From a virus (Duplodnaviria; Caudoviricetes): DNA of 50,602 bases. The DNA is taken from positions 1-50,602 of IMG/VR virus record IMGVR_UViG_3300021379_000808, one strand, 5' to 3'. This document shows, piece by piece, positions 24,057-42,600 of this stretch (its first letter is position 1; each line of letters opens with the position of its first letter). A model generated the notes under the pieces. The model was given only the letters and a program-made list of their open reading frames with translations, had not been told where the DNA came from and ran no database searches. Position numbers and translations under genes: made by a program.

Positions 24057-25230
24057 TACGCGCTCTCCGAATATCGCACCTGTAGCGCTCTACCTCACCG
24101 TACTCTTTAGACTGCACAATGCAGTACATATCACGACCCGATCGGTAGCCCGAATTGTGGTGCCACGCATCCTTAGCCGCCATAGTGCGGAATGATTCCT
24201 GAACGCACCCCCTCAGCTCCTGCCGAGTTGTATGATGGATATGACCTGTATACCAGTATCTATGCTCAGACTCTGCCCACAGTTTAGGCTCATCCGTAGC
24301 CATCAGCTCTGACAACGCGCTGGTCCGAACCGTATCGCCGTGCGTTGTGCCAATCAGCACCTTGCCGTGCGTTATGTAATTGAATTTGTTGACCGTTGAG
24401 TGGATCAGCACTCTTGGCTCCTTGTGGAAGTACGCCGCAAGGAATGCCGACAGCATCACGCTCGAATGATCGTCGTGGTTGCCAATGCAGTTGATAACCT
24501 CGACCGTTGGGTGCTTTGACAGCGCCATCGAGATCAGATCGACCATCAGCATACAACCGGCTTGCAATACCCGATGCCACCTCGAATCAACGTCAAGCTT
24601 TGCCCCTGATCGCGTTGTGCGTTCGGAGCTGTTATCAGCGTGAAAGAAGTCGCCCAGATTGACGATCAATGCTCGGTCTGTTTTGGGCGCCACATCAACC
24701 AATCGAGACGTAGCGTTAATGAGGTCTTCCCGGGCTATGTCTACGTCAAAGTTTTCGCCTGCTTCCTCAGCGTGGGCATAGCATCCAATATGCGGATCAC
24801 CCATCACGTAACAGGCCATCAGATCCTCGCTGTCGGATACCGGAGCCTTGCGTGGCTTATAGACCCCTTTGAAGTCTTCCATCGCATCAACGATGGCCTC
24901 GTGGATTCCGGTAAGCTTGTCCTCTTCGGACTGCTGAGTCTTGACCCATTGGACCTTGACTGAGCCGTCGTCCGCATAGAGCGTTGACGTGCCCTTGACT
25001 GCAAAGCCCTCTGCAACCTGATGCACCATATCGCTCTCAGGTGCGACACCCTGCAATGCCGCTCGCTTCTTGAGCTTTGCCAGCCTACGCTTGACGCCCC
25101 TATCGTTAGCGCCGATAAGGCGTATTGCCTGATCTACATTCCCGTCTGTTTCTGCAAGCGCATCTAACAGCTCATGCTCTGCGACAGTCTCTGCAAACGG
25201 CTCAAGATAGCTAAGTCGATGTCCAGCCAT
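24034..25230 (-). CDS. Calcineurin-like metallophosphoesterase
   Basis: GDPH, GDFFH, GNHD, HGD and GHIH motifs. Confidence 0.88.
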   Translation of the reverse strand: MAGHRLSYLEPFAETVAEHELLDALAETDGNVDQAIRLIGANDRGVKRRLAKLKKRAALQGVAPESDMVHQVAEGFAVKGTSTLYADDGSVKVQWVKTQQSEEDKLTGIHEAIVDAMEDFKGVYKPRKAPVSDSEDLMACYVMGDPHIGCYAHAEEAGENFDVDIAREDLINATSRLVDVAPKTDRALIVNLGDFFHADNSSERTTRSGAKLDVDSRWHRVLQAGCMLMVDLISMALSKHPTVEVINCIGNHDDHSSVMLSAFLAAYFHKEPRVLIHSTVNKFNYITHGKVLIGTTHGDTVRTSALSELMATDEPKLWAESEHRYWYTGHIHHTTRQELRGCVQESFRTMAAKDAWHHNSGYRSGRDMYCIVQSKEYGEVERYRCDIRRARSGRSQSN

Positions 25231-25633
25231 AAGCTATTCGCCTCGCTACATCCCGGGCTCTAGCAGGTGTCTGCTCAGCCCATCTCGAATCGAGAGCTTC
25301 TGCGTGAACTCTCCCCCAGTCCTCAGCCTTGATGGCGTTAATCATCCGCTCAAAGCCAAGTACACCGTCGTAGCCCATCTGATAGGCCATTTCGATGATT
25401 GCCTCGCGTCTGGGTTGATCCAGATCCCTGAACCAATCCAGCTCCTCGAAGCGTCTTGTTAGTTGTTCTGTGTAGTCGATCAGTAGCGCCTCGGCGATGT
25501 GCTCCGGCACACCGTATCCGCCCCGCTCAATCATTGTCCCGTAGCCGATTGTCAGCTTGCCCTGACTGCATTGGTAAGCGTACCGCCTGAAGCCCTCAAA
25601 TCGCTTTAGACGGTCGATAAGACCCTGAGACAT
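25211..25633 (-). CDS. Endolysin (GH24 phage lysozyme)
   Basis: EG.R..AY.C..GKLTIGYG, MAYQMG and DSRWAEQTPARA motifs; likely start MSQGL. Confidence 0.9.
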   Translation of the reverse strand: MSQGLIDRLKRFEGFRRYAYQCSQGKLTIGYGTMIERGGYGVPEHIAEALLIDYTEQLTRRFEELDWFRDLDQPRREAIIEMAYQMGYDGVLGFERMINAIKAEDWGRVHAEALDSRWAEQTPARARDVARRIAYGWTST

Positions 25634-25646
25634 AGGGATGGACCCG

Positions 25647-25817
25647 CTAGTCGTCCTTTCGCTTACGGGCTGTTTTAGAGGCCTTATCGAATGCCTCATC
25701 CGTTGGAGCACCCTTAGAGCCCGGCTTACGCATCCGCTCCTTTGACCCTGCCGCGATACGCTTTCGCTTTGCGTGGATGTTGGCATACAGCCCCGGTCTT
25801 TCCAGTAGCCCGGGCAT
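25647..25817 (-). CDS. Small basic hypothetical phage protein
   Basis: GLYANIHAKRKRI...GAPT motif; TAATG coupling to the upstream gene. Confidence 0.75.
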   Translation of the reverse strand: MPGLLERPGLYANIHAKRKRIAAGSKERMRKPGSKGAPTDEAFDKASKTARKRKDD

Positions 25818-26014
25818 TACTTTTCGCTTACCGGCTGAGTGGTCATGAATCGCAGTACCACAATGCCTGATGCAATCGCGCAACCGATGAAGGCCTGCAC
25901 TGCCGGGTTAGCCGGGATAAAGCCCACGAAGCCCTGAAGCACTGACAGCACCGCAATCGCTACGCCGTACTGAACCGTCCGAGATTTTAGTGCCTGTTTA
26001 ACTGTCATCACCAT
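25817..26014 (-). CDS. Putative holin
   Basis: 65 aa, two hydrophobic helices, LRF.TTQPV; near the endolysin. Confidence 0.7.
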   Translation of the reverse strand: MVMTVKQALKSRTVQYGVAIAVLSVLQGFVGFIPANPAVQAFIGCAIASGIVVLRFMTTQPVSEK

Positions 26015-26295
26015 TTCACCTTATGAGACCAATACCGAGCGCTCAGCTTGCTAGGGTTAGAGTCCTGAGCATTGTGCCGGGCGTAGTAGCTTTTCCGACG
26101 CGCCTTATCCTTGGCCGTCTTTGGATTCTTGCCAGCGCCTTTGACCCCCTGTTGCCCAAAACGGATCGTCTTGACCTGATCGCCTTCCTTCGCGACCACG
26201 ACGTGTGACTTGGTTGGGTGATTGGGTGTGCGCTTTGGCTTGTTAACGCCAGACACGCCTGCGCGCTCAAGCAGACCTTTGATGTCTCTTGCCAT
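26008..26295 (-). CDS. Basic hypothetical phage protein, first late gene
   Basis: NKPKRTP.HPTKSH.V.AK.G...IRFGQQG...SARYWS..VKW; start MARD. Confidence 0.8.
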   Translation of the reverse strand: MARDIKGLLERAGVSGVNKPKRTPNHPTKSHVVVAKEGDQVKTIRFGQQGVKGAGKNPKTAKDKARRKSYYARHNAQDSNPSKLSARYWSHKVKW

Positions 26296-26306
26296 TTCCG
26301 CAACCC

Positions 26307-26333
26307 AAAAAAAAGCCCCGACTCGCGGGGCAA
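26307..26333 (-). terminator. Rho-independent terminator just upstream of the late operon (tR'-like)
   Basis: GCCCCG-CGAGT-CGGGGC followed by T8. Confidence 0.85.
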
Positions 26334-26392
26334 ACAAACTAAGAGGAGTGTTTCAAAAAAACCTGACGGGACGCTGGACGCAATTACCGCCA
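26307..26392 (-). ncRNA. Candidate terminated leader sRNA with anti-RBS seed AAACACUCCUCUUAGUUU
   Basis: Seed is complementary to RBS regions at 26714, 26971, 27513 and 34300-34311 and ends in a terminator; the 5' end is inferred. Confidence 0.55.
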
Positions 26393-26398
26393 GACCCG

Positions 26399-26427
26399 AT
26401 TGTCAACCTTTTAGGTTCTGGAATCAA
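26399..26427 (-). promoter_or_regulatory. Candidate late promoter (pR'-like)
   Basis: TTGATT-17bp-GACAAT; an overlapping TTGACA lacks a well-spaced -10. Confidence 0.4.
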
Positions 26428-26466
26428 CCGATTTAAGACCCACATAAATATTTATTTCTGAAGTGC

Positions 26467-26495
26467 TTGACACAGTAGCGCTACTCGATTACGGT
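26467..26495 (+). promoter_or_regulatory. Sigma70-type promoter of the early accessory operon
   Basis: TTGACA-17bp-TACGGT with an AT-rich upstream element. Confidence 0.7.
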
Positions 26496-26504
26496 TACAC
26501 CTAT

Positions 26505-26519
26505 CAACCAATTTGGTTG
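26505..26519. promoter_or_regulatory. Candidate repressor operator
   Basis: Palindrome CAACCA-ATT-TGGTTG just after the promoter, similar to 34342-34354. Confidence 0.5.
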
Positions 26520-26653
26520 GCTGGCTACGAGGAGCCCAGACCCAAACCCTGCGGGAGACAACCCACCAAACCGGCGACCACTGAGTCAACCAGTGAGAGA
26601 CGACACCAAACGAGCACGATGAGCACCACCACCGGAGACGGCGTGGGAACATA

Positions 26654-26705
26654 GCGTCAACACCTAATGCGAGGTGTTCTGATGATGGCCAGCAGGCCGA
26701 AACGC
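26654..26705 (+). ncRNA. Hammerhead ribozyme, type III
   Basis: GCGU-C^ stem I AACACCU/AGGUGUU, CUGAUGA-U, stem II GGCC/GGCC, GAA-ACGC; predicted cleavage after 26658. Confidence 0.85.
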
Positions 26706-26725
26706 AAAACAACGGAGTGTTACCA

Positions 26726-26911
26726 ATGCAGACCTTTGTATGCAAGGGTCGAGCGGGTAAGTGGTCCTACGGTTACCTTGCCGAGCCCGGCAAGCGAAAC
26801 GTGTGGGTGTACACCAACGGTGAGGTCACATACCGACCGCTTGGTGGAAACAACTTGATGGCCGCTTCAAGCGAAGCCACCACGTTGCACCGCAACTCGC
26901 TCGAGTCCTGA
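26726..26911 (+). CDS. Small hypothetical early protein (61 aa)
   Basis: GGAGTGTT RBS before ATG 26726. Confidence 0.65.
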   Translation: MQTFVCKGRAGKWSYGYLAEPGKRNVWVYTNGEVTYRPLGGNNLMAASSEATTLHRNSLES

Positions 26912-26982
26912 ATTAGATTCGGAGTCTGACCCACTTGGCAACAGAACGGGTCTCCCCTTTTAAAACAACTGGAGTGTTCAAT

Positions 26983-27429
26983 ATGACTACAAAAACATTG
27001 AAGCAAATCAACGCAGAACTCGCAGAGACCTCAGCCCAGCTCGAAGCTTTGGCGGATGTCCTGAGAGAAGCTAAGCAACACGTAGCTGACAAGACCCGGG
27101 AGGTCAGAGAGCTGGAGCGTTCAAGAACCGAGACGGCAGAGCGTGAACGGCGCAACTGGGTGAATCGCAACCGCTCGAAGGCCAAGCGATTAGCGGCCAA
27201 GTACGGTATCGAGATCGAGGACGAGTCGATCAGAGACTACGATGGATATGACCTGCGCCACTGGGTAGGTCAGCCAGACTGGCTTGAAGGTGACGACCCG
27301 CTCACAGATGGTCACTTCAGTCACTGCTGGAGCGACACTGTTTGGCTTGTCGAGTTTTACGCCAAGCATCACCCATCTCACCCAGATCACGAGAACCGTG
27401 AGCACAGGGTTCATAGCCCTCACTGCTAA
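26983..27429 (+). CDS. Hypothetical early protein with N-terminal coiled coil
   Basis: GGAGTGTT RBS before ATG 26983. Confidence 0.8.
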   Translation: MTTKTLKQINAELAETSAQLEALADVLREAKQHVADKTREVRELERSRTETAERERRNWVNRNRSKAKRLAAKYGIEIEDESIRDYDGYDLRHWVGQPDWLEGDDPLTDGHFSHCWSDTVWLVEFYAKHHPSHPDHENREHRVHSPHC

Positions 27430-27430
27430 A

Positions 27431-27490
27431 CCCGTCTGACGATGGCTGGAGGGATACCAGCCGAAACGCCTCCGGGCGTCACGGGAATCC
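27431..27490 (+). ncRNA. Hammerhead ribozyme, type I
   Basis: Stem I CCCGU/ACGGG, CUGACGA-U, stem II GGCUGG/CCAGCC, GAA, stem III ACGCC/GGCGU, GUC^ at 27480; loop II GGAU can pair with AUCC 27487-27490. Confidence 0.9.
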
Positions 27491-27522
27491 ACCCGACAAC
27501 ATACAAAAATTTGGAGTGTTTT

Positions 27523-28383
27523 ATGACTAAGAAAAAAGTTGATGCCTATCAGGTAATCACGGACAAAGTAATCGCGATGCTAGAGACTCACGGGTCAGGC
27601 TGGACTAAGCCTTGGTCTGACAGCCTCGCAGGATCGCCTGTAAGCCTTTCCACCGGCAACCCCTATCGAGGTATCAACCGACTGCTACTCGGCCTTGAGG
27701 GACGTTCTGATGCGCGCTGGGGCACATACAAGGCTTGGTCAGAGAAGGGCGGTCAGGTTCGTAAGGGCGAGAAGGGTACTGCGGTTATCTTCTTTAAGCC
27801 CTTAGAGATTCGAGGTGATGACGGTGAGGTCGAGAAGAAGATCCCCTTTGCCCGTATATACAATGTATTCAATGCCGAGCAAGTTGACGGTATCGAATTG
27901 ATCCAACCTGAAGAGCTGACCCCCATAGAGTTAGATCAGCGTTGCGAGGATTTCATTGCCGAGACTGCCGCGCAAATCCGATTTGGTGGTGACTCTGCGT
28001 TCTACTCCCCGGTTGTCGATTACATCGGTATGCCGAGACCAGAGGCCTTTGAGTCTACTGCCGGTTACTACGGCGTCCTACTGCACGAGCTCACTCACTG
28101 GACTGGTCACTCTACCCGGTGCGACCGCAAGATCCTCAATAGCTTTGGTAACGAGGACTATGCGTTCGAGGAGCTGGTTGCCGAGCTAGGCGCCACCTTC
28201 CTTTGTGCCGATTTAGGTATCGAAATAGAGCCCCGCGAGGATCATGCACAGTATATCGCAAGCTGGCTCAAAGCGCTACGAAACGACAAGAAATTGATCG
28301 TTAAAGCGGCCAAGCAAGCCCAGCTCGCAAGCGAGTTCTTGCACGGCCTCCAAACAGAAAATCAACTAGCAGAGGCCGCATAA
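27523..28383 (+). CDS. ardC: ArdC-like antirestriction protein (ssDNA-binding domain plus zincin metallopeptidase)
   Basis: W.KPW, YRGIN.L.L, W.TY..W...GGQVRKGEKG, VFNAEQ, HELTHWTGH and YAFEELVAE motifs; true start 27523 after the RBS. Confidence 0.92.
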   Translation: MTKKKVDAYQVITDKVIAMLETHGSGWTKPWSDSLAGSPVSLSTGNPYRGINRLLLGLEGRSDARWGTYKAWSEKGGQVRKGEKGTAVIFFKPLEIRGDDGEVEKKIPFARIYNVFNAEQVDGIELIQPEELTPIELDQRCEDFIAETAAQIRFGGDSAFYSPVVDYIGMPRPEAFESTAGYYGVLLHELTHWTGHSTRCDRKILNSFGNEDYAFEELVAELGATFLCADLGIEIEPREDHAQYIASWLKALRNDKKLIVKAAKQAQLASEFLHGLQTENQLAEAA

Positions 28384-28389
28384 GCGGCC
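28374..28389 (+). repeat. Stop-codon hairpin GGCCGCATAAGCGGCC, copy 1
   Basis: Identical to 28703-28718. Confidence 0.8.
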
Positions 28390-28403
28390 CGAGGGACAAG
28401 TAT

Positions 28404-28712
28404 ATGCAACCAATGCAAAAAGAAATCGTTAAAAAAATCGAAGCCTATGAAGGTATGGACCCAGCTAACGTGAGCGTAGCTGACCTGATCGCATACCAAC
28501 TGAGACTTACAACCTTGGTAAGTCGATACAATGCCAAAAACCCAGAACTCCGCCCAGTCCGAATTATGTTCTGCGGTAGTGGCGGCTTGATTGTTCATCT
28601 CGAATACCAGTACCTGAAGGTCTCACTGGAGCGGGTCAATGGGCGCCTCGACTGGCCCGATTCGCGTGATGTTTTGCAGGATTGGTACAACGACTACGAA
28701 CTGGCCGCATAA
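28404..28712 (+). CDS. Hypothetical early protein
   Basis: GAGG RBS; ends in NDYELAA. Confidence 0.75.
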   Translation: MQPMQKEIVKKIEAYEGMDPANVSVADLIAYQLRLTTLVSRYNAKNPELRPVRIMFCGSGGLIVHLEYQYLKVSLERVNGRLDWPDSRDVLQDWYNDYELAA

Positions 28713-28718
28713 GCGGCC
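28703..28718 (+). repeat. Stop-codon hairpin GGCCGCATAAGCGGCC, copy 2
   Basis: Identical to 28374-28389; followed by TTT. Confidence 0.8.
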
Positions 28719-28737
28719 TTTAACTGAGGAGAGAAAA

Positions 28738-29268
28738 ATGTCTAAGATCATCTACAAAGAAATCCAAGTCCACTGGTGTATGGCTCGTTGCTGGGTTGTG
28801 CGAGGAGTGCCATTTGAGGGTATGCACCAAGTACTCGATACCCTGCCAACTCAAAGTCTAGCCATAGACATCGCAAAGCTTCACGCCTTTGGATCTGACC
28901 AGCTACCCCGCAAGGCATTGCAGGTCAGGGTTTTTAAGAAAAGTCACGGGCTCAAACAAATCATATCGCCCCCTGAAGATCTAAGCGAAAAAGTAAGCTC
29001 GCATGAGGAGCTTGTAATGCGCCTAGCGCGAGAATACTGCGAGCGCAGATCTTTCCCTTTCGACATACCGAGCGTTGGCACAACTATCGGAGCGATGGAG
29101 TTGGAGAAGCCGGTGAGTTGGTGGGGATCTGCTCACGATGTCTACGAGTGGGCTCTCCGCCTGCGCGACGAGATCATCGAGATCCGCAACTATATGGCCA
29201 GTCAAGGGCGCGGCCTTCACGACGAGCCTGTCGATAGACAGACAGACTATGTGGGGGGTGCGTTATGA
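28738..29268 (+). CDS. Hypothetical protein
   Basis: GAGGAG RBS before ATG 28738. Confidence 0.75.
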   Translation: MSKIIYKEIQVHWCMARCWVVRGVPFEGMHQVLDTLPTQSLAIDIAKLHAFGSDQLPRKALQVRVFKKSHGLKQIISPPEDLSEKVSSHEELVMRLAREYCERRSFPFDIPSVGTTIGAMELEKPVSWWGSAHDVYEWALRLRDEIIEIRNYMASQGRGLHDEPVDRQTDYVGGAL

Positions 29269-29390
29269 GCTACCTATGGTTCGGTCTGTCTCTAACCATT
29301 CTTCTCACCGTGGGGTCAGTATTACTGGCCCTTTTGCTTGCAGAAGAGCGTTACATCGTACACCTAATGTATGGAAGGAAAAGAAAATGA
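29265..29390 (+). CDS. Small membrane peptide (41 aa), not in the ORF track
   Basis: ATGA overlaps at both ends; hydrophobic WFGLSLTILLTVGSVLLALLLA. Confidence 0.6.
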   Translation: MSYLWFGLSLTILLTVGSVLLALLLAEERYIVHLMYGRKRK

Positions 29391-29635
29391 ATAAAGTCGG
29401 ATATCTTCGTACTAACAAAGCCCCCATCTGGGGGCGCATATGCCGCAGTGCATACCACAACTGCCCCGATGAAGATTGGGGTGAGGTCATCGTTGCCGCG
29501 ATGAACCGGGGGATACTAGACCCCGAAGCTGTCTACTGGTGCGACATCGTTGAGTTCAATGAGGCCGCATCAGAGTACCCGGGGACAGTGAGCGAGTTTC
29601 TTGACTCACTGCCTGCTCCGGGGCGGCTGTCATGA
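29387..29635 (+). CDS. Hypothetical protein
   Basis: MNKVGYL start; ATGA coupling. Confidence 0.7.
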   Translation: MNKVGYLRTNKAPIWGRICRSAYHNCPDEDWGEVIVAAMNRGILDPEAVYWCDIVEFNEAASEYPGTVSEFLDSLPAPGRLS

Positions 29636-29802
29636 CCATCTCAGCCAAGGAGCGCATCGAGACACTCCTGCGAGGGGGCTACCGTCCAGACGAAGTGGCC
29701 TCAATCATCGAGGTAGAGCGAGAGCAATGGAAGCTCAACGAGTTCGATATCGAGGATATGCAGGAGATGGTTAAGCGCATCAAGGAGAAGTTAGACCTAT
29801 GA
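29632..29802 (+). CDS. Small hypothetical protein (56 aa), not in the ORF track
   Basis: MTISAKERIETLLRGG...; ATGA coupling on both sides. Confidence 0.65.
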   Translation: MTISAKERIETLLRGGYRPDEVASIIEVEREQWKLNEFDIEDMQEMVKRIKEKLDL

Positions 29803-29876
29803 GCTTTTATCAGCTAGCAAAAGCCATCCTTTGGGTGGCTCTCATCATAACCGCCTATTCGTTAGTGGAGGGATAA
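29799..29876 (+). CDS. Putative 25-aa membrane peptide
   Basis: GGAG RBS, ATGA overlap, AILWVALIITAYSLV. Confidence 0.45.
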   Translation: MSFYQLAKAILWVALIITAYSLVEG

Positions 29877-29877
29877 A

Positions 29878-30039
29878 ATGGACGCAATCGTTTACCTAGT
29901 GCTTTACCGGGGGCAGGGCTCCGGCGATACCTACAAGCACTGCTGTTATAACTGGAGTGAAGCAGAGGAGACTTTGCAGGAGCTCCAGCAGTCAGAACCA
30001 GATCGCGAGTGGTACATCTGCGAAAAGGATGTCTCGTGA
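29878..30039 (+). CDS. Small hypothetical protein (53 aa)
   Basis: GGAGG RBS; GTGA overlap with the next gene. Confidence 0.65.
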   Translation: MDAIVYLVLYRGQGSGDTYKHCCYNWSEAEETLQELQQSEPDREWYICEKDVS

Positions 30040-30215
30040 AACTGTCACCAAGCCAAGTCAAAGAGGCATCCGAACTAGAGTCCAAGGGCGTACAGCTCTG
30101 GGCTCTGGCTCAGATGTTCAGCGTTCACTACGACACGATGCGGAGATACCTTCGCAACTACCGAACTTATGGGGATTCAATGTTCACCCCGTACCCAAAA
30201 GAAATCGAGGAGTAA
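30036..30215 (+). CDS. Small HTH DNA-binding protein
   Basis: G.QLWALAQMFSVHYDTMRRYL HTH pattern; GTG start. Confidence 0.65.
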   Translation: MKLSPSQVKEASELESKGVQLWALAQMFSVHYDTMRRYLRNYRTYGDSMFTPYPKEIEE

Positions 30216-30218
30216 GTC

Positions 30219-30377
30219 ATGCAATCAGTTCAACAACTGCTTAACCGAATGGAAGCGGAGATGGCCGCACTAGATCTTGAGTATCAAGTTTACAAAGCGT
30301 CTTGCGCTTTTCACGAGGAGCCTATGGGATACATTGAGTGGAAGGCCGCAAAGTCAAAGGAGGAGGCCGATGAGTAA
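30219..30377 (+). CDS. Small hypothetical protein (52 aa)
   Basis: GAGGAG RBS before ATG 30219. Confidence 0.65.
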   Translation: MQSVQQLLNRMEAEMAALDLEYQVYKASCAFHEEPMGYIEWKAAKSKEEADE

Positions 30378-30642
30378 GTCAGAAGCCGCGAGAGCCTTGG
30401 CCGGTATGAGAAAGGTCCGAGAGCTTCACTGCATTGGTTGCGGGGAATCTTTCCACGCCGTCGATACCCGGGCGAAGTATTGCTCGAATCGTTGCCGCCA
30501 GAAGATGAAATACCAGCGTAAAGTTGCCGAGTATTTTGACAAGGAGTGCGCCGTTTGCGAGACCGTTATGTTCCTCAACGATAAGCGAGTGAAGTATTGC
30601 TCGCCTCGATGCCGCTCAATAGCCGCTGTCCTTCGGAAGTGA
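30370..30642 (+). CDS. Protein with two Cys4 Zn-finger repeats
   Basis: CxxC...KYCSxRCR twice; GGAGG RBS. Confidence 0.75.
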   Translation: MSKSEAARALAGMRKVRELHCIGCGESFHAVDTRAKYCSNRCRQKMKYQRKVAEYFDKECAVCETVMFLNDKRVKYCSPRCRSIAAVLRK

Positions 30643-30942
30643 ATCAAACTCCTTCCTAAATGCCTCAATCGCCATATCCCTCGCCCTGCGGGGGATTTTT
30701 TTTGCCCTGTCGATATAGATAAGCCTCAGCGTTTTCCTTAATGCCGGATGCAGTTTGTTGACGGCGGTTCCGGTCATCTCAACAACCATATCGCGCTCAG
30801 TCATTACCCCGGTGCTTCGATAGCCGGACTGATAATCTTTGAATGTTGGTGATACCGAAGGGTAGTCTAGCTGGCTGACCTCTCCCCTCTCAGCGTCCCC
30901 CCAGTCTTTAAGCAAAGTCATTGCCGCATATTTTGGCATCAT
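30616..30942 (-). CDS. Putative Q-like late antiterminator (start uncertain)
   Basis: Last gene of the nin region; L..WG...L.YP.VSP.F pattern and sigma-region-4-like helices. Confidence 0.5.
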   Translation of the reverse strand: MMPKYAAMTLLKDWGDAERGEVSQLDYPSVSPTFKDYQSGYRSTGVMTERDMVVEMTGTAVNKLHPALRKTLRLIYIDRAKKIPRRARDMAIEAFRKEFDSLPKDSGY

Positions 30943-38093: not shown

Positions 38094-38325
38094 ATGGCTT
38101 TATGTAACAGGCACACCTAAGACAACCTTCAGGGGATGGAAGAAGAAGCTCGTTAAAGGACAGCACTATTTCGTTAATGGTCGATCAACTTACGTTGACG
38201 CCAAGGAGATGGACAATTGGCTAAGGGCATCAGGCGCTGGAGAAACAAGTGGCAGTTACGAGCCACAGTTGACGGTAAAGCGCACACCCTCACGCTCGAC
38301 TACCCAGATACTCAAGCTGGTCTGA
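38074..38325 (+). CDS. xis: Excisionase-like protein
   Basis: Small basic wHTH-like protein (G.HY...GR.TYVD...MDNW) upstream of and overlapping int. Confidence 0.65.
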   Translation: MLIHLDKWLYVTGTPKTTFRGWKKKLVKGQHYFVNGRSTYVDAKEMDNWLRASGAGETSGSYEPQLTVKRTPSRSTTQILKLV

Positions 38326-39260
38326 GGAAGGCCGTAAAGGCTAGGAAAGTCTGGCTTGCTCAACTCAAGTCTGGCTGTGTCGAGGATGTGCCTCAGTTTG
38401 GTGTGCTTGCTCAAGAGTACCTACGCCAATCTGACCTAAAGCACTCCACGTATCACGTATACCGTAGAGCGTTAAACCAGTTTTGGATGCCGCATCTAGC
38501 TACGGTTGGCGTGGACCGCATTAAGCCGAGTGTGGTCCGCGCCATACTTAAATCCCACGATGTAACCTCAAAGACAAAACGCAATGCGCTCATACCTTTA
38601 CGCAAGGTGTTCGAGCTGGCTATCGAGGAAGACTACATCGACACTAACCCGGTAGATTCTGTGCGGGTTAGGCGCCACCAGAAGCCCCCGGTTATTCGAT
38701 TCACGCCAGAAGAAAAGGCAAAGATACTCAAGCGCCTTGATGGGGACGGCTACCTGTTCTATCTGATTGCCTTCGAGACCGGGATGAGAACCGGGGAGAT
38801 ACTGGGCCTCAAGTGGGAGGACCACACCGGGGACAATATCCATCTATCAAGATCCATTGTGCGCGGCAGGATTGGATCTCTAAAGACTTACAACGCTAGG
38901 TCAGTGTTCGTATCGCCCAAACTGCGGAAGGTGCTTACAAGTCATCCTGATCGCTTCAAGGGAGGGTTTATATTCGTCACTGCTAACGGCGATTATTGCC
39001 GAGACGATGACAGGTTCAGAAGGGCTTGGCACAAGGCATTAAAGGGAGCGCGAATAACCTATCGAAGGCCATACACTTGCAGGCATACTAGAGCATCAGA
39101 GATGCTGATGGCTGGGGTGGAGCCAGCCTTTGCGGCAAGACAGCTAGGCCATTCAATACAGATGTTCTTAACGGTATACGCAGAGTGGATAGATGGCGTT
39201 AAGGATGTACAGCAAAGAGAGATACTTAAAGCCATAGGGGGCAATGATGCGAGTAGTTAG
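38217..39260 (+). CDS. int: Tyrosine integrase
   Basis: TGMRTGE, K, YTCRHT, LGHS and VYA catalytic motifs; N-terminal arm-binding-like domain; TTG start after AGGAG. Confidence 0.92.
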   Translation: MAKGIRRWRNKWQLRATVDGKAHTLTLDYPDTQAGLRKAVKARKVWLAQLKSGCVEDVPQFGVLAQEYLRQSDLKHSTYHVYRRALNQFWMPHLATVGVDRIKPSVVRAILKSHDVTSKTKRNALIPLRKVFELAIEEDYIDTNPVDSVRVRRHQKPPVIRFTPEEKAKILKRLDGDGYLFYLIAFETGMRTGEILGLKWEDHTGDNIHLSRSIVRGRIGSLKTYNARSVFVSPKLRKVLTSHPDRFKGGFIFVTANGDYCRDDDRFRRAWHKALKGARITYRRPYTCRHTRASEMLMAGVEPAFAARQLGHSIQMFLTVYAEWIDGVKDVQQREILKAIGGNDASS

Positions 39261-39634: not shown

Positions 39635-42600
39635 TTAGCCAGCGCGGTCCTGCATGAATTCATCGTACCGCTTGTTGAAGCGATCAACGATATCGTCCTT
39701 GCTTTCCCTTAGCGCTTCGAGCTGTTGCTCTCTATCGGCAGGCGTTAGGTCGTCTCGATCCCGTATTCTCATCTCACGCTCGCGGATACGACGCAATCGC
39801 TTATAGACGTTATTGGCTTTTGGATACAGCGTTCGTATTCCATTAAAGCCTTCGTCGCTTGCCTTTCTTGCATTAGAGTCAGGCGCGTCATTGTATTCCT
39901 TGCGAGCGTTGATAATCTCCTGTCGCCTTTCGTAGAAGGTGTCGATGTCTCCGTAGTCGGACTGATCCTTACCAACAAGAACCCGAGCAAACGGCACATT
40001 AGCGATCTCCAACTGCCTGCCAGTAACGGGCCTAAATATAGAGTCGCCTGTACCTGTGGCCGTTCTCAATAAACCGCCGCCTGCGTACTCGATAATCTGC
40101 TGTAGAGTCTCTGGGCTAACGTCTGTAGAAATGCCCATAAGCTCGCCAGATCTGTACTCAGATCCGCCGCCAATAACGTCATTAAGGAACTGAGCCACCT
40201 GAACATAAGGCTCTTTGGTTGAAGGCCAGTACAAGTAAGCATCCGCCTTCTGTGCTCCGCCGGGGAAGTTTTCTGGGTAAATCTTCTCACCGAAGTAGTT
40301 AGTGTTTACTGCAAGCTCAGTGACCGGAAGCACAATGCTTGGGCTTATCGTTAGTGCCGCCTGAGCCGCCGCATTTTCCGCCCTGTGCAGACTGAACGGG
40401 GAGAACGACGTTGTGAAGCTAGACACCAAATCGCCAAGAATATTATCCCTTCTGCGCTGTGATCCTTTGAGCGCACCTTCCACCGAGTCGCCAAGATTCC
40501 AGAAGAAGTTGTAACCGTAGGGCAAGGGTAGCTTGTAGTAATCCCCGCCAGATCCGGGCTTCATAATGATGAGATTTCTTTCTCGTATGCCTGCGGGGAT
40601 CTTGTCCCAGAAAGCTTCGCCATCATCATCCTCACCACCCACTTCTCTCATTAGAGAAGCAAACCCAGCTCCGCCAGCAACAATGCCGCCAGCTATCTTC
40701 TGGGCTAGGTTTAGATTTCTCTGCACCTGAATGTTTCCTTGGCTGTTGACCTGAAGAGGGCTCAGTGTCCGCAAGAACTGAGTGGTTCCCTGAACTGCCG
40801 CGTTAAAGAACATATATAGCGAATTAACGAATGTTCCTATCTCGCCCTTGCGGTTAAAGTTCACCGTCATATTCTTGGCTAAGGACGCCGCCTGCTTGCG
40901 AGCAACGCCTGCCTTCCTAGCCTCGATATAGGCCGATAGTCTGACGCCGTTTTCTACTGCGCTGTTGTATTTCTCAACCAGCTCAGCAATCTTAACGCCA
41001 GCCTTCATCAAGTCATTCTTGGTGCCGGGGCCAGCTCTGCCTAGCTTCTTCTCTAGATCTGCGGCAATTGTGTCAACATCTGGAGAGTCAAAGTAACCAG
41101 TCTTTGCGCCGTCGTTAAGAAACTCTTGGTAGTATCGACGATACTCAGTAGCTTCTGGGTCAGAGTCGTCATTAACGGCATCTTGCTTATTGGATGATCT
41201 GATTGCGGCAATAGCCCTTGGCGTACCTGAGACAACTTTACCAGCAATCTGATTACCGTCTAACTTCCCGCCATCCATAGTGGCCTCTGCCATTAGATTC
41301 AGCGCCGCCGCCTGAATATCACGGGCGAAGTTCGTGACCACAAACTGAGGGTTGTATGAGGTATTAACAGATGCCAAGAACCGGGTCATCCCAGCAACAA
41401 CCTTGGTTACTGCGCTCAATCGCTCAGGACCAACATTCTGCATTGCATTAAGCAGTCGCTGATCCTTGACCTTGATGTAATGGACAATGCCATCCCGCTT
41501 GACTGCGTAGTATTTGTCTGACCCTGCCATATTGACCGGACCCTCTCTAACACTTCCGTTACGGAACTGCTCCTCAGTGTCCGGGTTTGCGTCAGTAAAG
41601 ACTTCCCACATATCAGGATCTGGGTTGCCCTCAACAAGATTAAGGAAGGTCTGGCCGACCTCGTTCTTCCTGTTGCGGATGGTCTTCTCTGTGAGATCCG
41701 CAATAACCTGAGATGTTGGGCTCTTCGCTTTGGATCTTCGGCCTAGTGCGCGGCGCGACTCTTTGCCTCGTATGTCAAAGCCCCTGCCTGTTCTAATTCT
41801 ATTGCCGTTAGAATCAACCTCGTCGTCAGCGAATCCCCGCAATGGGATGTAGTTTTCATACATACTCTCCCAAGAACTAACCTCCTCATCCGAGGCTAAG
41901 CCGCCAGACTTAATAAGATCTCGCGTAAGCTGAGTCATTGCGTATACTTGATTGGCAAGTTGGTTGTAGTCTGCCAGCTTCCCGGATCTCTGTACGCGCT
42001 GTATAACCTCTGCCGCTTCAGCGTTAGTCATACCTGAGCCACCGTCAGGTAGCTTGTCATTGATTGCCGCAATCTTACGGTTACGCTCTGGTGCGTGACG
42101 AGCCATCAGGTACTCGTCTAGATCGGCAACGCTAATGCCAGTCTTCTCAAGTAGCTCGACAAACGGACGAATCAGACGAACCTCTAGCTGTCGCAAGTCT
42201 TCTTCGGTCTTACCGTAAAAAGCCTCTTCCGCTAGGTAAGCGTCCTCGTCAAAGTCCAGCTTGCGCTCTTGCGTTTCCTCAATGAACTGCTGAGTGCGCT
42301 TGAGGCCGACCATTTTGTCTTGGAAGGTGCGGATGAATTTATCAGCAATAGTCTCTTCAGGCGGTCGCTTAGGGTAGATTCTCGCCGAGTCCCGCTGGAA
42401 CATTGGCAATCCTTCCTCTGTAACCTTCTGCTTAAACTCATCAGAGATAGGTGCGGCCCAGCCACGAATGCCTGCATCCTGCATGAGCTTCATTCTGAGT
42501 TTTTCTTCAGCTTGCTTTCTTGCGACCTCTACACCTTTGTCGGTGTAAATGTCCATAAAATCAATAGCAAGATAGTCGCTATTAGAAGGGAAAGTGACTG

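Follow-up and report, generated by a model that had tools for sequence, protein, structure and literature searches.

Hammerhead ribozymes have previously been described in clusters that flank genes, including ardA, in prophage operons, where a role in mRNA processing was proposed; in the parts of that paper dealing with these clusters, the ribozymes are reported to cleave in vitro and in E. coli, and one set of three surrounds ardA in a prophage of Agrobacterium tumefaciens (Perreault et al. 2011; PMC3088659). The same paper describes, in the haloviruses HF1 and HF2, a hammerhead variant located 13 nt before the gene that opens an early polycistronic transcript, with a mapped 5′ end within 3 nt of the cleavage site (PMC3088659). 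The plus-strand hammerhead of Chrysanthemum chlorotic mottle viroid carries one extra nucleotide, naturally an A, after A9; as stated in the sections on this residue, the ribozyme is active, replacement of the A by U raised the rate 3–4 fold, and U was the fastest-cleaving residue at this position (PMC3705267). [quoted passage not shown]

This locus comes from an uncultured marine tailed phage with an integrase gene; the window, i.e., the whole stretch of DNA that was analysed, is 50,602 nt long. The region of interest appears to lie at the promoter-proximal end of an accessory operon that runs rightward and whose promoter, “early” direction, and extent are putative and were read from the sequence. 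The only gene of the operon with an assigned function is ardC, and the first late gene starts at 26295 on the minus strand. The features, in window positions, are as follows.

26300–26406, minus strand: candidate promoter of the leftward late operon with a short terminated leader (conserved elements and a terminator-like site)
26467–26519, plus strand: candidate rightward promoter with operator-like palindromes (read from sequence)
26500–26658, plus strand: C/A-rich untranslated leader, start approximate, upstream of the predicted HH1 cut
26654–26705, plus strand: HH1, a type III hammerhead (pattern scan, covariation)
26706–26721, plus strand: ribosome-binding site (RBS) box 1, with GGAGTGTT after an A-rich arm (motif count)
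26726–26911, plus strand: 61-aa ORF of no known family, dispensable cassette (no Pfam or PHROG match)
26962–26978, plus strand: RBS box 2 (motif count)
26983–27429, plus strand: 148-aa ORF (ORF2) of an uncharacterised family (homologues, AlphaFold model)
27431–27495, plus strand: HH2, a type I hammerhead (27431–27485) with a 3′ tail (27486–27495)
27505–27520, plus strand: RBS box 3 (motif count)
27523–28383, plus strand: ardC (PF08401, PF18818)
28374–28389, plus strand: stop-codon hairpin 1, with the ardC TAA in the loop (repeat count, fold)
28404–28712, plus strand: 102-aa ORF of no known family, dispensable cassette between the hairpin copies
28703–28718, plus strand: stop-codon hairpin 2, identical to hairpin 1 (repeat count, fold)
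28738–29268, plus strand: 176-aa ORF of no known family, the next gene of the operon

None of the cultured phage records matches the 83-base HH2 element, and the exonuclease is <46% identical to its best counterpart in a cultured phage; the 2.5-kb region matches just 141 bases, in one unannotated record.

Compared with the clusters as presented in those parts of the 2011 paper, the locus is alike in having hammerheads of mixed topology on the gene strand between phage cistrons, an anti-restriction gene adjoining a ribozyme, flanked genes that are not constant, and possible tertiary contacts of the pseudoknot type, and in that processing of a polycistronic mRNA is proposed; it differs in carrying ardC rather than ardA, in belonging to an uncultured marine phage, in having copies that escape Rfam, and in its documented breakpoints at a ribozyme edge, RBS, and stop-codon elements. 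The sequence-only reading knew of no earlier description of the combination; clustered prophage hammerheads and the processing hypothesis were already published in 2011 (PMC3088659), and the window subtype may already be listed in the supplementary figures or tables of that paper. Our analysis adds the finding of a hammerhead after the 148-aa gene family in 8 of 8 loci, in all three topologies, an extra U in 13 of 27 hammerheads, and exact cassette breakpoints. As described for HF1/HF2, the leader ends in a ribozyme that lies a few nt ahead of the first start codon; HF1 and HF2 are archaeal viruses with a core-variant ribozyme and a mapped 5′ end, whereas the cleavage site here is predicted. 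The viroid hammerhead shares the extra nucleotide between A9 and G10.1, and is a replication ribozyme with a natural A (PMC3705267), in contrast to the natural U in 13 of the 27 distinct phage hammerheads here. A search of full-text literature for ArdC together with a ribozyme gave nothing relevant among the matches listed (three of four), which concerned human-genome ribozymes or RNA structure inference and each mention ArdC a single time.

Compensatory base-pair changes in relatives bear out the claim that both hammerheads are genuine. The type I alignment had 98.8% of its cells paired and two-sided changes in 8 of 21 pairs, values as high being reached in 0/500 shuffles; the type III alignment was also 98.8% paired, with two-sided changes in 10 of 14 pairs, and shuffles scored as high in 0/500 cases on four of five whole-structure measures and in 6/500 on the two-sided-change pair count. 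Slid controls for the alignments were 31–47% paired. Both window copies contain CUGANGA, GAA, the A15.1-U16.1 pair, and a C at the cleavage site, and deviate from the core by one extra U between A9 and G10.1; this U is compatible with activity, since the viroid hammerhead tolerates an extra residue there, as the sections on it describe (PMC3705267). For HH2 (type I), cleavage is predicted between C27480 and A27481, and the minimum-energy fold of the 55-nt core is the hammerhead fold; its 3′ tail can pair with loop II, with four pairable bases whose pairs are invariant in 12 sequences, or, alternatively, fold into a 5′ hairpin of the downstream product. For HH1 (type III, stem I closed), cleavage is predicted between C26658 and A26659. 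Its stem III has only 4 bp, the L009 orthologue having a 6-bp stem III and no extra U; a loop-loop match of only 3 bases is possible, as judged by eye, and the hammerhead fold (−17.0 kcal/mol) lies 2.2 kcal/mol above the minimum-energy fold (−19.2 kcal/mol). HH1 may be slow or partly decayed.

A pattern scanner applied to both strands of the window found HH1 and HH2 only, both on the plus strand, against a background of 5 matches in 3,462,852 shuffled strand-bases (about 0.15 expected for the window); family-specific covariance models identified no further hammerhead copy in the window. Rfam found no window hammerhead at the gathering score, which is an operational cut-off and not a defining property, nor at E ≤ 10 over 26200–28900. 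Among the related loci, L005 reached 38.2 bits with Rfam Hammerhead_II (gathering score 37), and L008 and L015 reached 39.8 and 45.7 bits with Hammerhead_3, both below its gathering score of 48.5. The HH2 subtype, in which the extra U after A9 goes with a fixed loop II and a tail that can pair, was also found in other phage contigs and in six Paenibacillus genome contigs; current Rfam models thus miss a widespread type I subtype that marine phages share with Paenibacillus genomes.

The window and related loci contained 27 distinct hammerheads, 13 with the extra U after A9; all 27 have a GUC cleavage triplet and a G10.1-C11.1 pair, neither of which is required by the scanner. Duplicate loci (L001, L067, and L071), one overlapping artefact in L066, and three low-scoring scanner matches with summed stems <13 bp (L016, L018, and L063 minus strand) were left out of the counts. 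Because the scanner misses bulged or mismatched stems, the L009 copy of HH2, the Paenibacillus copies, and their counterparts in viral loci L062, L065, and L072 were identified by eye. All matches with summed stems of at least 13 bp are on the gene strand, and 28 of 29 copies are followed within 6–50 nt by a Shine-Dalgarno sequence and a start codon, the lone exception running off its contig. In the eight loci with the 148-aa gene family, the hammerhead that follows is type I in two, type II in three, and type III in three; a hammerhead of any topology after one gene family argues that selection keeps cleavage at that place rather than a particular RNA. In public contigs X1 and X3 (see below), HH2 does not directly follow the 148-aa gene. 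A scanner-detected hammerhead was present in 8 of 19 ardC loci, at varying positions. Metagenome loci fetched with the neighbouring 95-aa late protein gave 0 hammerheads in 80 loci (354,246 bases); these loci are mostly not syntenic and show no nucleotide similarity to 26296–30700.

We consider it probable that the accessory operon is transcribed as one RNA that is cut in cis by the two hammerheads into units with defined ends, and that it is built of cassettes exchanged at short elements. The ribozymes occupy the intercistronic gaps, directly ahead of ribosome-binding sites, and cutting of the mRNA, as the sequence-only reading proposed, is therefore the natural interpretation; cleavage in the cell and its consequences for expression are inferred. 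[quoted passage not shown] Cleavage by HH2 would part the two small genes at the front of the operon from ardC and the genes distal to it; HH2 is type I, and its body would be retained at the 3′ end of the upstream RNA. The ardC mRNA would then begin with a 5′-OH and a small hairpin, followed by an A-rich ribosome-binding site free of structure. Each unit would probably gain defined, structured ends in this way, and its stability and translation would be independent of the neighbouring cassette. Synthetic insulators of the RiboJ type likewise place a hammerhead and a small hairpin before a ribosome-binding site and make downstream expression independent of the upstream region; this likeness is an analogy of mechanism only, RiboJ being engineered and the HH2 arrangement natural.

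The hammerheads might instead be passengers, i.e., selfish or relic elements spread by recombination with the cassettes and of no benefit to operon expression. A type I element of about 70 nt is about 90% identical in contigs otherwise unrelated to the window, type I stem II recurs letter for letter in Paenibacillus genomes, close relatives lack ribozymes, and the 2011 paper allows, in the parts on these clusters, that some copies may be non-functional (PMC3088659). We nevertheless regard this as improbable given the strict gene-strand orientation, the location of 28/29 copies immediately upstream of a ribosome-binding site, and the fold kept by many compensatory changes; the three unrelated topologies at one intergenic position after one gene family point to selection for cleavage there. 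A still more remote alternative concerns the segment between HH1 and HH2, which may be released with a 5′-OH and a 2′,3′-cyclic phosphate and have its ends joined, by a host RtcB-type ligase or by ribozyme reversal, into a circular or spliced RNA. The substrates of RtcB are precisely such ends, and the bracket of type III, genes, and type I, which was found in four distinct contigs (the window, L009, L008, and L015), would leave both ribozyme bodies on the excised piece. However, no sequence feature brings the two ends together, and the passages on clustered hammerheads in the 2011 paper report that no spliced or circular products were found (PMC3088659); we therefore give this alternative hardly any weight.

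Processing in cis is our preferred explanation at the RNA level; at the DNA level, a cassette consists of an RBS box and an ORF, often with a stop-codon hairpin, and genes are gained, lost, or swapped at short repeated boxes, hairpins, and ribozyme edges. The first three genes do share an initiation region, as had been claimed; GGAGTGTT occurs in four window copies, all on the plus strand, and three of these precede the ATGs at 26726, 26983, and 27523 by 4–5 nt. The fourth copy, at 26345, was not listed in the sequence-only reading. On its own, the count is weak (four copies were reached in 3/100 shuffles). The two identical stop-codon hairpins stand out from shuffled sequence in both count and fold energy; the 16-base palindrome with a stop codon in its loop has exactly two copies, at 28374 and 28703, with 0.04 expected by chance and the count reached in 0/100 shuffles, and each forms a hairpin (6-bp G+C-rich stem, 4-base loop) of about −12.8 kcal/mol (z about −2.95).

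Exchange at these motifs, which the sequence-only reading had suggested as a possibility, is supported by relatives and by public contigs (Logan contigs of four runs, X1, X2, X3, and X5, from two studies), in which the points of gene gain, loss, or replacement coincide exactly with an RBS box, with the edge of HH2, and with the stop-codon hairpins. The X1–X3 contigs join 26705 to 26961, with RBS box 1 as the left and RBS box 2 as the right breakpoint, and the 61-aa ORF is missing from the X1, X2, X3, and X5 contigs as well as from L009. The X1 and X3 contigs carry 475 letters inserted between the ORF2 stop and HH2; the X2 and X5 contigs skip 28390–28700, such that the 102-aa gene is gone exactly between the hairpins; and the X3 contig has 28390–29005, starting at the first hairpin, replaced by 330 other letters. 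L009 also lacks the 102-aa gene, again exactly between the two hairpins, and has other genes between RBS box 1 and HH2, while L012 lacks one gene exactly between two GGAGTGTT copies present in L010 and L011. The expectation that related contigs hold variable genes between conserved elements was therefore confirmed, but the hammerheads do not co-occur with these elements in the closest relatives, L010–L012, where the RBS boxes, a stop-codon hairpin, and the promoter are retained and both hammerheads and ardC are absent; the ribozymes are thus dispensable for this phage type. Natural variants that exchange genes at a ribozyme edge, an RBS box, and a stop-codon hairpin fit a role of ribozymes and hairpins in insulating swappable genes from their neighbours. 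In T4-type phages, promoter-early stem-loops serve as short boundary sequences that mediate modular gene shuffling; in both systems, genes come and go at boundaries marked by short repeated regulatory sequences, the repeats here being ribosome-binding boxes, stop-codon hairpins, and ribozyme edges. Integron gene cassettes, which go with an integron integrase, an attI site, and attC sites bearing conserved core sites, provide an analogy only; the hairpins have 16 bases, no core sites are evident, and the only integrase found is of the phage type and about 10 kb away.

The rightward promoter was partly upheld: a TTGACA hexamer (26467–26472), a perfect 12-base palindrome (26474–26485), and a 15-base palindrome (26505–26519) are present, and the −35 hexamer and the first palindrome are conserved in L009–L012, but a scan of 25900–29400 for sigma-70 promoters gave 0 sites (shuffles average 1.8), and the weak −10 candidate at 26490–26495 matches the hexamer at 3/6 positions. 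No inverted repeats of at least 12 bases were reported for 26290–26560, the palindrome arms being only 6–7 bases. The description of the leader and the spacer as structured did not hold; neither the leader (26510–26655; z = +0.09) nor the spacer (26905–26985; z = +1.15) is more stable than its shuffles. Between the window and L009, the block 25202–26721 is 86.7% identical and ardC 90% identical; the leader (26505–26657) differs by just one indel, of a single base, and therefore has no conserved reading frame. The leader occurs in the window, the contig of L009, and similar public contigs only, an exact 23-base leader pattern was found among viral contigs in that of L009 only, and complementarity of the leader to the rest of the window is limited to chance-level matches of 9–13 bases.

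Leftward of this promoter, the minus strand carries TTGACAAT (26406–26399), a conserved TGCGTCC (26382–26376), the RBS-box complement AACACTCC (26352–26345), and a hairpin (26331–26315; 6-bp all-G:C stem) followed by a U8 run (26314–26307), 12 nt before the ATG at 26295. This site has the features of an intrinsic terminator and of a putative terminated late-operon leader, its candidate promoter being proposed solely from the conserved TTGACAAT...TGCGTCC motif. Weak Rfam matches in the window (asX2, RyhB, and others; E 0.8–8) correspond merely to the terminator hairpin. The leader elements are conserved in L009–L012, with variable intervening bases, and more distant relatives have a similar layout of TTGACAAT, leader, and terminator. 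In lambda, a late promoter yields the 6S leader RNA, and the terminator is read through under Q antitermination; the leader here also ends in an intrinsic terminator directly upstream of late/structural genes, but no Q-like gene was identified here, and the complement of the early RBS box has no lambda counterpart.

In the full model of the sequence-only reading, ribozyme processing is combined with a minus-strand sRNA (26406–26300) that silences the first three genes by pairing with the GGAGUGUU boxes, while ArdC and the 102-aa protein are removed through C-terminal Ala-Ala degrons, giving a short pulse of expression. The box complement does lie just upstream of the hairpin and U8 terminator, with its CU-rich part in a predicted hairpin loop, and is kept in 5/5 close relatives, in which adjacent bases vary and a 7-base gap occurs; in the ribozyme-free L010–L012, GGAGTGTT is still used at the first genes, and the copy upstream is retained. 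Against this, the pairing has only 8 bases, the element is equally explained as a terminated late-operon leader under antitermination control, the leaders of distant relatives carry a generic CCUCC or ACUCCU with no matched change found in the early ribosome-binding sites, and one low-depth contig lacks 26333–26376. The case for an sRNA gate over the RBS boxes is circumstantial, and we consider the full model unlikely. About equally doubtful is a dedicated cassette system delimited by RNA elements, in which a lineage-specific hairpin would present the Shine-Dalgarno sequence, a GNRA-like hairpin the stop codon, and hammerheads would insulate groups of cassettes, the same elements serving as recombination joints, and in which, in the window lineage, a late-operon leader RNA with the box complement would switch the cassettes off at the onset of late transcription; if true, genes could be swapped between phages with their expression undisturbed.

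The identification of ardC was confirmed by matches at 27523–28383 to PF08401 (E = 2.3e-29) and PF18818 (E = 4.4e-50), along with phrog_7245 (E = 2.4e-83); with an N-terminal ArdC domain and a zincin-like metallopeptidase domain in which HELTH matches the HExxH motif, the product is, by its domains, a predicted ArdC anti-restriction protein. The 61-aa ORF had no match in Pfam or PHROG. The 148-aa protein has 44 homologues, none of them named, and no Pfam family; its AlphaFold model (pLDDT 90.1) predicts a long N-terminal helix and a small His-rich beta domain, for which Foldseek found nothing in the PDB at E ≤ 0.001 and a few dsRNA-binding-domain rows near E = 1, while coiled coils found with VIA-align match the long helix only (Z about 6) and are uninformative. 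Of five operon proteins examined, two have the Ala-Ala C-terminus that the proposed degrons would require; ArdC ends in AEAA and the 102-aa protein in YELAA, which we take to resemble the end of the ssrA tag, a degron whose C-terminal LAA is recognised by ClpXP and shortens protein half-life. The terminal Ala-Ala codons lie inside the hairpin stem, and these ends may therefore be a by-product of it; among the hairpin-terminated ORFs of these operons, 15/15 end in Ala and 10/15 in Ala-Ala.

No terminal repeats were found in the 50,602-base window, a complete IMG/VR virus record for which CheckV gave a completeness of 100%. The phage is probably temperate, since it encodes an integrase; its exonuclease is <46% identical to the best cultured-phage match (Vibrio and Aeromonas phages), and seawater or marine is the usual label of the public runs in which parts of the region are found. 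Small genes from 26726 to ~30640 form a block read rightward, with 430 intergenic bases between it and the divergent late genes, which are read leftward; among the five ORFs of this block listed below, only ArdC could be assigned to a family, and its identification in the sequence-only reading was confirmed. A minus-strand ORF elsewhere in the window (39635-47752) encodes 2705 aa, of which the last ~900 residues match PHROG families that have no known function and are found in giant phage proteins.

Features of the window
26295 down to 1, minus strand: leftward (late) genes, among them those for an endolysin-like protein, a metallophosphatase-type exonuclease, a portal or adaptor protein, a major head protein and a tail fibre
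leftward from ~26406, minus strand: putative late-operon leader, with TTGACAAT, TGCGTCC, a U-rich stretch, the complement of GGAGTGTT, a hairpin and U8
26654-26705, plus strand: HH1, type III hammerhead (stem I closed, 7 bp; stem II, 4 bp; stem III open, 4 bp)
26706-26721, 26962-26978 and 27505-27520: ribosome-binding site (RBS) boxes 1, 2 and 3, each holding GGAGTGTT before an ATG
26726-26911, plus strand: ORF of 61 aa, no family
26983-27429, plus strand: ORF2, 148 aa, no named family
27431-27485, plus strand: HH2, type I hammerhead (stem I open, 5 bp; stem II, 6 bp; stem III closed, 5 bp)
27523-28383, plus strand: ardC, 286 aa, matching PF08401 and PF18818, phrog_7245
28404-28712, plus strand: ORF of 102 aa, no family
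28738-29268, plus strand: ORF of 176 aa, no family
38217-39260: integrase

HH1 and HH2 both presented a full hammerhead core when read by hand, each with one extra U between A9 and the first stem II pair. Rfam identified no hammerhead in the window at gathering score and none at E ≤ 10 over 26200-28900. A descriptor scan written for all three topologies, which demanded neither the GUC triplet nor the G10.1-C11.1 pair, found only HH1 and HH2 when applied to both strands of the window; over the window and 71 fetched loci it gave 41 matches in 1.15 million strand-bases (including duplicate loci and four low-quality or artefact matches that were later dropped), as compared to 5 in 3.46 million shuffled strand-bases. 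Relatives were fetched via the 148-aa protein, the exonuclease, and the 24-base stem II pattern. The 27 distinct hammerhead sequences (11 type I, 4 type II, and 12 type III) all carry the GUC triplet and the G10.1-C11.1 pair, and 13 carry the extra U. In the type I alignment, 98.8% of cells are paired and both sides change at 8 of 21 pairs, values that none of 500 shuffles reached on any measure, with slid controls 31-47% paired; in the type III alignment, 98.8% of cells are likewise paired and both sides change at 10 of 14 pairs, with no shuffle in 500 scoring as high on four of five measures and 6/500 doing so on the count of both-side-changed pairs. Among relatives, Rfam Hammerhead_II matched in L003-L005 (best 38.2 bits, gathering score 37), while Hammerhead_3 matched in L008 (39.8 bits), L002 (29.2 bits), and L015 (45.7 bits), all below its gathering score of 48.5; every type I copy of the HH2 subtype was missed by Rfam at E ≤ 1, and HH2 of L009, the closest relative, reached only 19.3 bits on RAGATH-1-hammerhead. 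The type I and type III alignments were also turned into covariance models; these match HH1 and HH2 by construction and found no third copy in the window. An extra residue at the same position is described for the plus-strand hammerhead of a chrysanthemum viroid, where it is naturally A rather than the U of HH1 and HH2; that ribozyme is active despite the extra A, and replacing the A with U is reported to increase the rate 3-4 fold (PMC3705267). With a full core, covariation over relatives, and Rfam matches in several of these, HH1 and HH2 are, on sequence criteria, both hammerheads, as had been claimed. HH1 is the weaker of the two; its minimum-energy fold (-19.2 kcal/mol) is more stable than the active one (-17.0 kcal/mol), and its L009 orthologue has a 6-bp stem III and no extra U. 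For the 55-nt core of HH2, the hammerhead fold is the minimum-energy fold.

Conservation extends past the HH2 cleavage site, where four of the conserved bases could form pairs with loop II. These pairs are invariant in 12 sequences; the pairing, if formed, would be the pseudoknot-type tertiary contact described by Perreault et al. (PMC3088659). In another possible pairing, the 3′ strand of HH2 stem I joins a copy of the 5′ strand located further downstream, giving an alternative hairpin that is isoenergetic with the hammerhead fold and that shows both-side changes at 3 of 5 pairs and 80% paired cells, a score reached by 2/500 shuffles; it is plausible that the new 5′ end of the downstream product folds into this small hairpin after cleavage. 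Six Paenibacillus genome contigs (L173-L178) contain the same subtype, with the extra U, identical stem II and loop II, and the pairing tail, followed by the alternative hairpin in different letters and then by a ribosome-binding site and ATG. These type I hammerheads match HH2 letter for letter over its 24-base stem II plus GAAAC, as do copies in L062, L065, and L072; the Paenibacillus copies have an interrupted stem III and were hence missed by the descriptor scan. This recurrence indicates that the HH2 subtype is an old and widespread form, one that lies outside Rfam coverage.

Every match with summed stems of at least 13 bp is located on the gene strand. Many copies abut the preceding stop codon, and in 28 of 29 copies from non-duplicate loci a Shine-Dalgarno sequence and start codon are found 6-50 nt past the ribozyme, the single exception running off its contig. 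The 148-aa protein family has 44 homologues, none of them named and with no Pfam family; a hammerhead follows the gene in 8/8 loci. Two of these hammerheads are type I, three are type II, and three are type III. The presence of three unrelated strand topologies at one position argues that cleavage after this gene is what matters, although 475 other letters separate the 148-aa gene from HH2 in public sequencing runs X1 and X3, counter to a strict rule. Within 2.5 kb of ardC in 19 loci on viral contigs, the descriptor scan found gene-strand hammerheads at 8 and no opposite-strand hammerheads; these are variously upstream, directly downstream, or one gene off, suggesting that they are tied to the operon type and not to ardC itself. 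The bracket “type III ... type I” was found in four distinct contigs. In the lineage of L002, L007, and L008, a 6-bp G:C hairpin is located between the stop codon and each type III hammerhead (e.g., L007:333-357 and 821-845), and the cleaved upstream mRNA would end in this hairpin plus five bases; tRNA genes are found downstream of hammerhead-bearing operons at L008:4741-4811 and L007:3272-3324. The model of the 148-aa protein (pLDDT 90.1) presents a 70-residue helix and a small beta domain, and the protein has invariant His, Pro, and Asp residues and a C-terminal His-Cys; a search for fold matches found none, with a few dsRNA-binding-domain rows only near E 1.

GGAGTGTT occurs four times in the window, always on the plus strand; as claimed for the first three genes, three copies lie 4-5 nt before start codons, and the fourth is at 26345. 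As a bare count this is weak, 3/100 shuffles reaching four. The 16-base palindrome with TAA in its loop (folding z ~ -2.95) is present in exactly two copies, one at the end of ardC and one at that of the 102-aa ORF, against a chance expectation of 0.04, in agreement with the two identical stop-codon hairpins proposed previously. When all loci are taken together, 19 open frames of at least 50 codons end in a hairpin of this kind (a stem of 5 bp or more with at least 4 G:C pairs, and a 4-base loop holding TAA, TGA, or TAG), as compared to 3.4 per shuffle replicate; 15 of the 19 belong to these operons, and C-terminal Ala is encoded by all 15. The C termini of ArdC (AEAA) and the 102-aa protein (ELAA) had been read as degrons; in both ORFs the last two codons lie within the 5′ arm of the hairpin, making up its 3′ part, so that the alanines may simply result from the presence of the hairpin. 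A repeated box of 10-16 bases surrounds the Shine-Dalgarno sequence and is peculiar to each lineage (the window; L002, L003, L004, L007, L157-L161, and L167); in four lineages it takes the form of an inverted repeat around that sequence, in differing letters, which suggests that the ribosome-binding site is presented in a small hairpin.

L009 (87-90% identical to the window) retains the intergenic region, leader, HH1, HH2, ardC, and one stop-codon hairpin, but it carries two different small genes between RBS box 1 and the first base of HH2 and lacks the 102-aa gene, the gap falling exactly between the hairpin copies. The next relatives, L010-L012 (~75% identical), have everything from just past the promoter to 29264 replaced; they lack the long leader, hammerheads, and ardC, still have GGAGTGTT at their first genes, and contain a stop-codon hairpin, and L012 has lost one gene exactly between two GGAGTGTT copies as compared to L010 and L011. 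Junctions were also compared in public-run contigs from two studies.

Junctions in contigs assembled from public runs
26705-26961, runs X1, X2 and X3: 61-aa cassette gone
26682-26961, run X5: 61-aa cassette gone too, the joint bridged by an L009-like HH1 end
after 27427, runs X1 and X3: 475-letter insertion, separating the ORF2 stop from HH2
28389 joined to 28700 or 28704, runs X2 and X5: 102-aa cassette gone
28390-29005, run X3: replaced by 330 letters, different content past hairpin 1

Each of these breakpoints coincides with one of three elements, namely an RBS box, the edge of a ribozyme, or a stop-codon hairpin, in support of the idea that the shared motifs could aid cassette exchange.

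Upstream of HH1, TTGACA followed by a perfect 12-base palindrome and, further on, a 15-base palindrome can be read from the sequence, as the sequence-only reading had it, but a promoter scan of the region called nothing. The leader and spacer had also been described as structured; their folding stability is no better than that of shuffled sequence (z = +0.09 and +1.15, respectively). The leader (26505-26657) differs between the window and L009 by one indel only, with identities of 86.7% over the whole 25202-26721 block and 90% over the HH2-ardC block; in the X1-X3 contigs, the best-supported differences listed include one substitution within the leader and eight within the preceding 80 bases. 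Since the indel is of a single base, a conserved reading frame can be excluded. A structure signal, an internal target in the window, and a further homologue were looked for and none was found. HH1 would release the leader RNA with a cyclic phosphate end. Run X1 contains a hint of a diverged leader-like variant in another contig. A different leader, G+C-rich and ~250 nt long, is conserved among L003:2440-2690, L004:2230-2470, and L005:1690-1900; it likewise runs up to a type III hammerhead that immediately precedes the first gene. Rfam gave nothing for it at E ≤ 1, and it may represent a ribozyme-released non-coding RNA.

Under the most likely mechanism, one transcript would start near 26500. 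HH1 would cut the leader off, its body staying on the 5′ end of the next piece, and HH2 would cut before ardC, its body staying on the 3′ end of the middle piece; this middle RNA (26659-27480, 822 nt) would have a folded ribozyme at both ends, and the ardC mRNA would begin with a 5′-OH and a small hairpin. Bacteria are known for 5′-end-dependent and 3′-exonucleolytic mRNA decay, and on this basis the stability and translation of each unit would be expected to be defined whatever the neighbouring cassette.

The sequence-only reading knew of no earlier description of the combination; clustered gene-flanking hammerheads and the processing idea have, however, been in print since 2011. Perreault et al. 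describe single prophage genes or short gene blocks often flanked by multiple hammerheads, the genes not being constant, and propose that long phage transcripts may be processed into shorter mRNAs (PMC3088659). They report that three prophage clusters cleave in vitro, that a triple cluster flanking ardA in Agrobacterium tumefaciens cleaves in E. coli, that ardA is just downstream of a hammerhead in three Legionella strains, and that circular or spliced products were looked for and not found (PMC3088659); the anti-restriction gene beside a hammerhead is ardA in those cases and ardC in the window. A 2019 review repeats the processing idea and considers the biology of bacterial self-cleaving ribozymes largely elusive (PMC6765202). 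Among the three matches listed of the four in a full-text literature search on ArdC and ribozymes, none was relevant; their co-mentions concerned human-genome ribozymes or RNA structure inference, with “ArdC” once each. The original observation is largely right, except for the “structured” leader and spacer, and its interpretation is partly right. Beyond the 2011 work, the present analysis adds a subtype that Rfam overlooks, the replacement of one topology by another at a single position, and clear cassette breakpoints that coincide with the sequences of RNA elements, the cassette structure being the main addition.

An sRNA gating translation of the cassettes had also been suggested. On the minus strand, a conserved TTGACAAT is followed ~17 bases on by a conserved TGCGTCC (26376-26406), then by the exact complement of GGAGTGTT and a 6-bp G:C hairpin with U8, and the ATG of the first late gene lies 12 bases beyond. 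All these elements are kept in L009-L012, with variable bases between the GGAGTGTT complement and the hairpin; in more distant relatives the promoter-leader-terminator layout is kept and the CU-rich motifs are generic. This element is most simply interpreted as a terminated leader of the late operon. The complement of GGAGTGTT is kept even in relatives without ribozymes that use the same RBS box, and no matched changes between the leader and early ribosome-binding sites could be shown in more distant relatives; we consider it unlikely that this late-operon leader also acts in trans on the cassette ribosome-binding sites. The promoter-like TTGACAAT and TGCGTCC upstream of the late genes are conserved to relatives at 60-70% protein identity; TGCGTCC is unlike the sigma-70 -10 hexamer and may be a site for a phage-specific factor.
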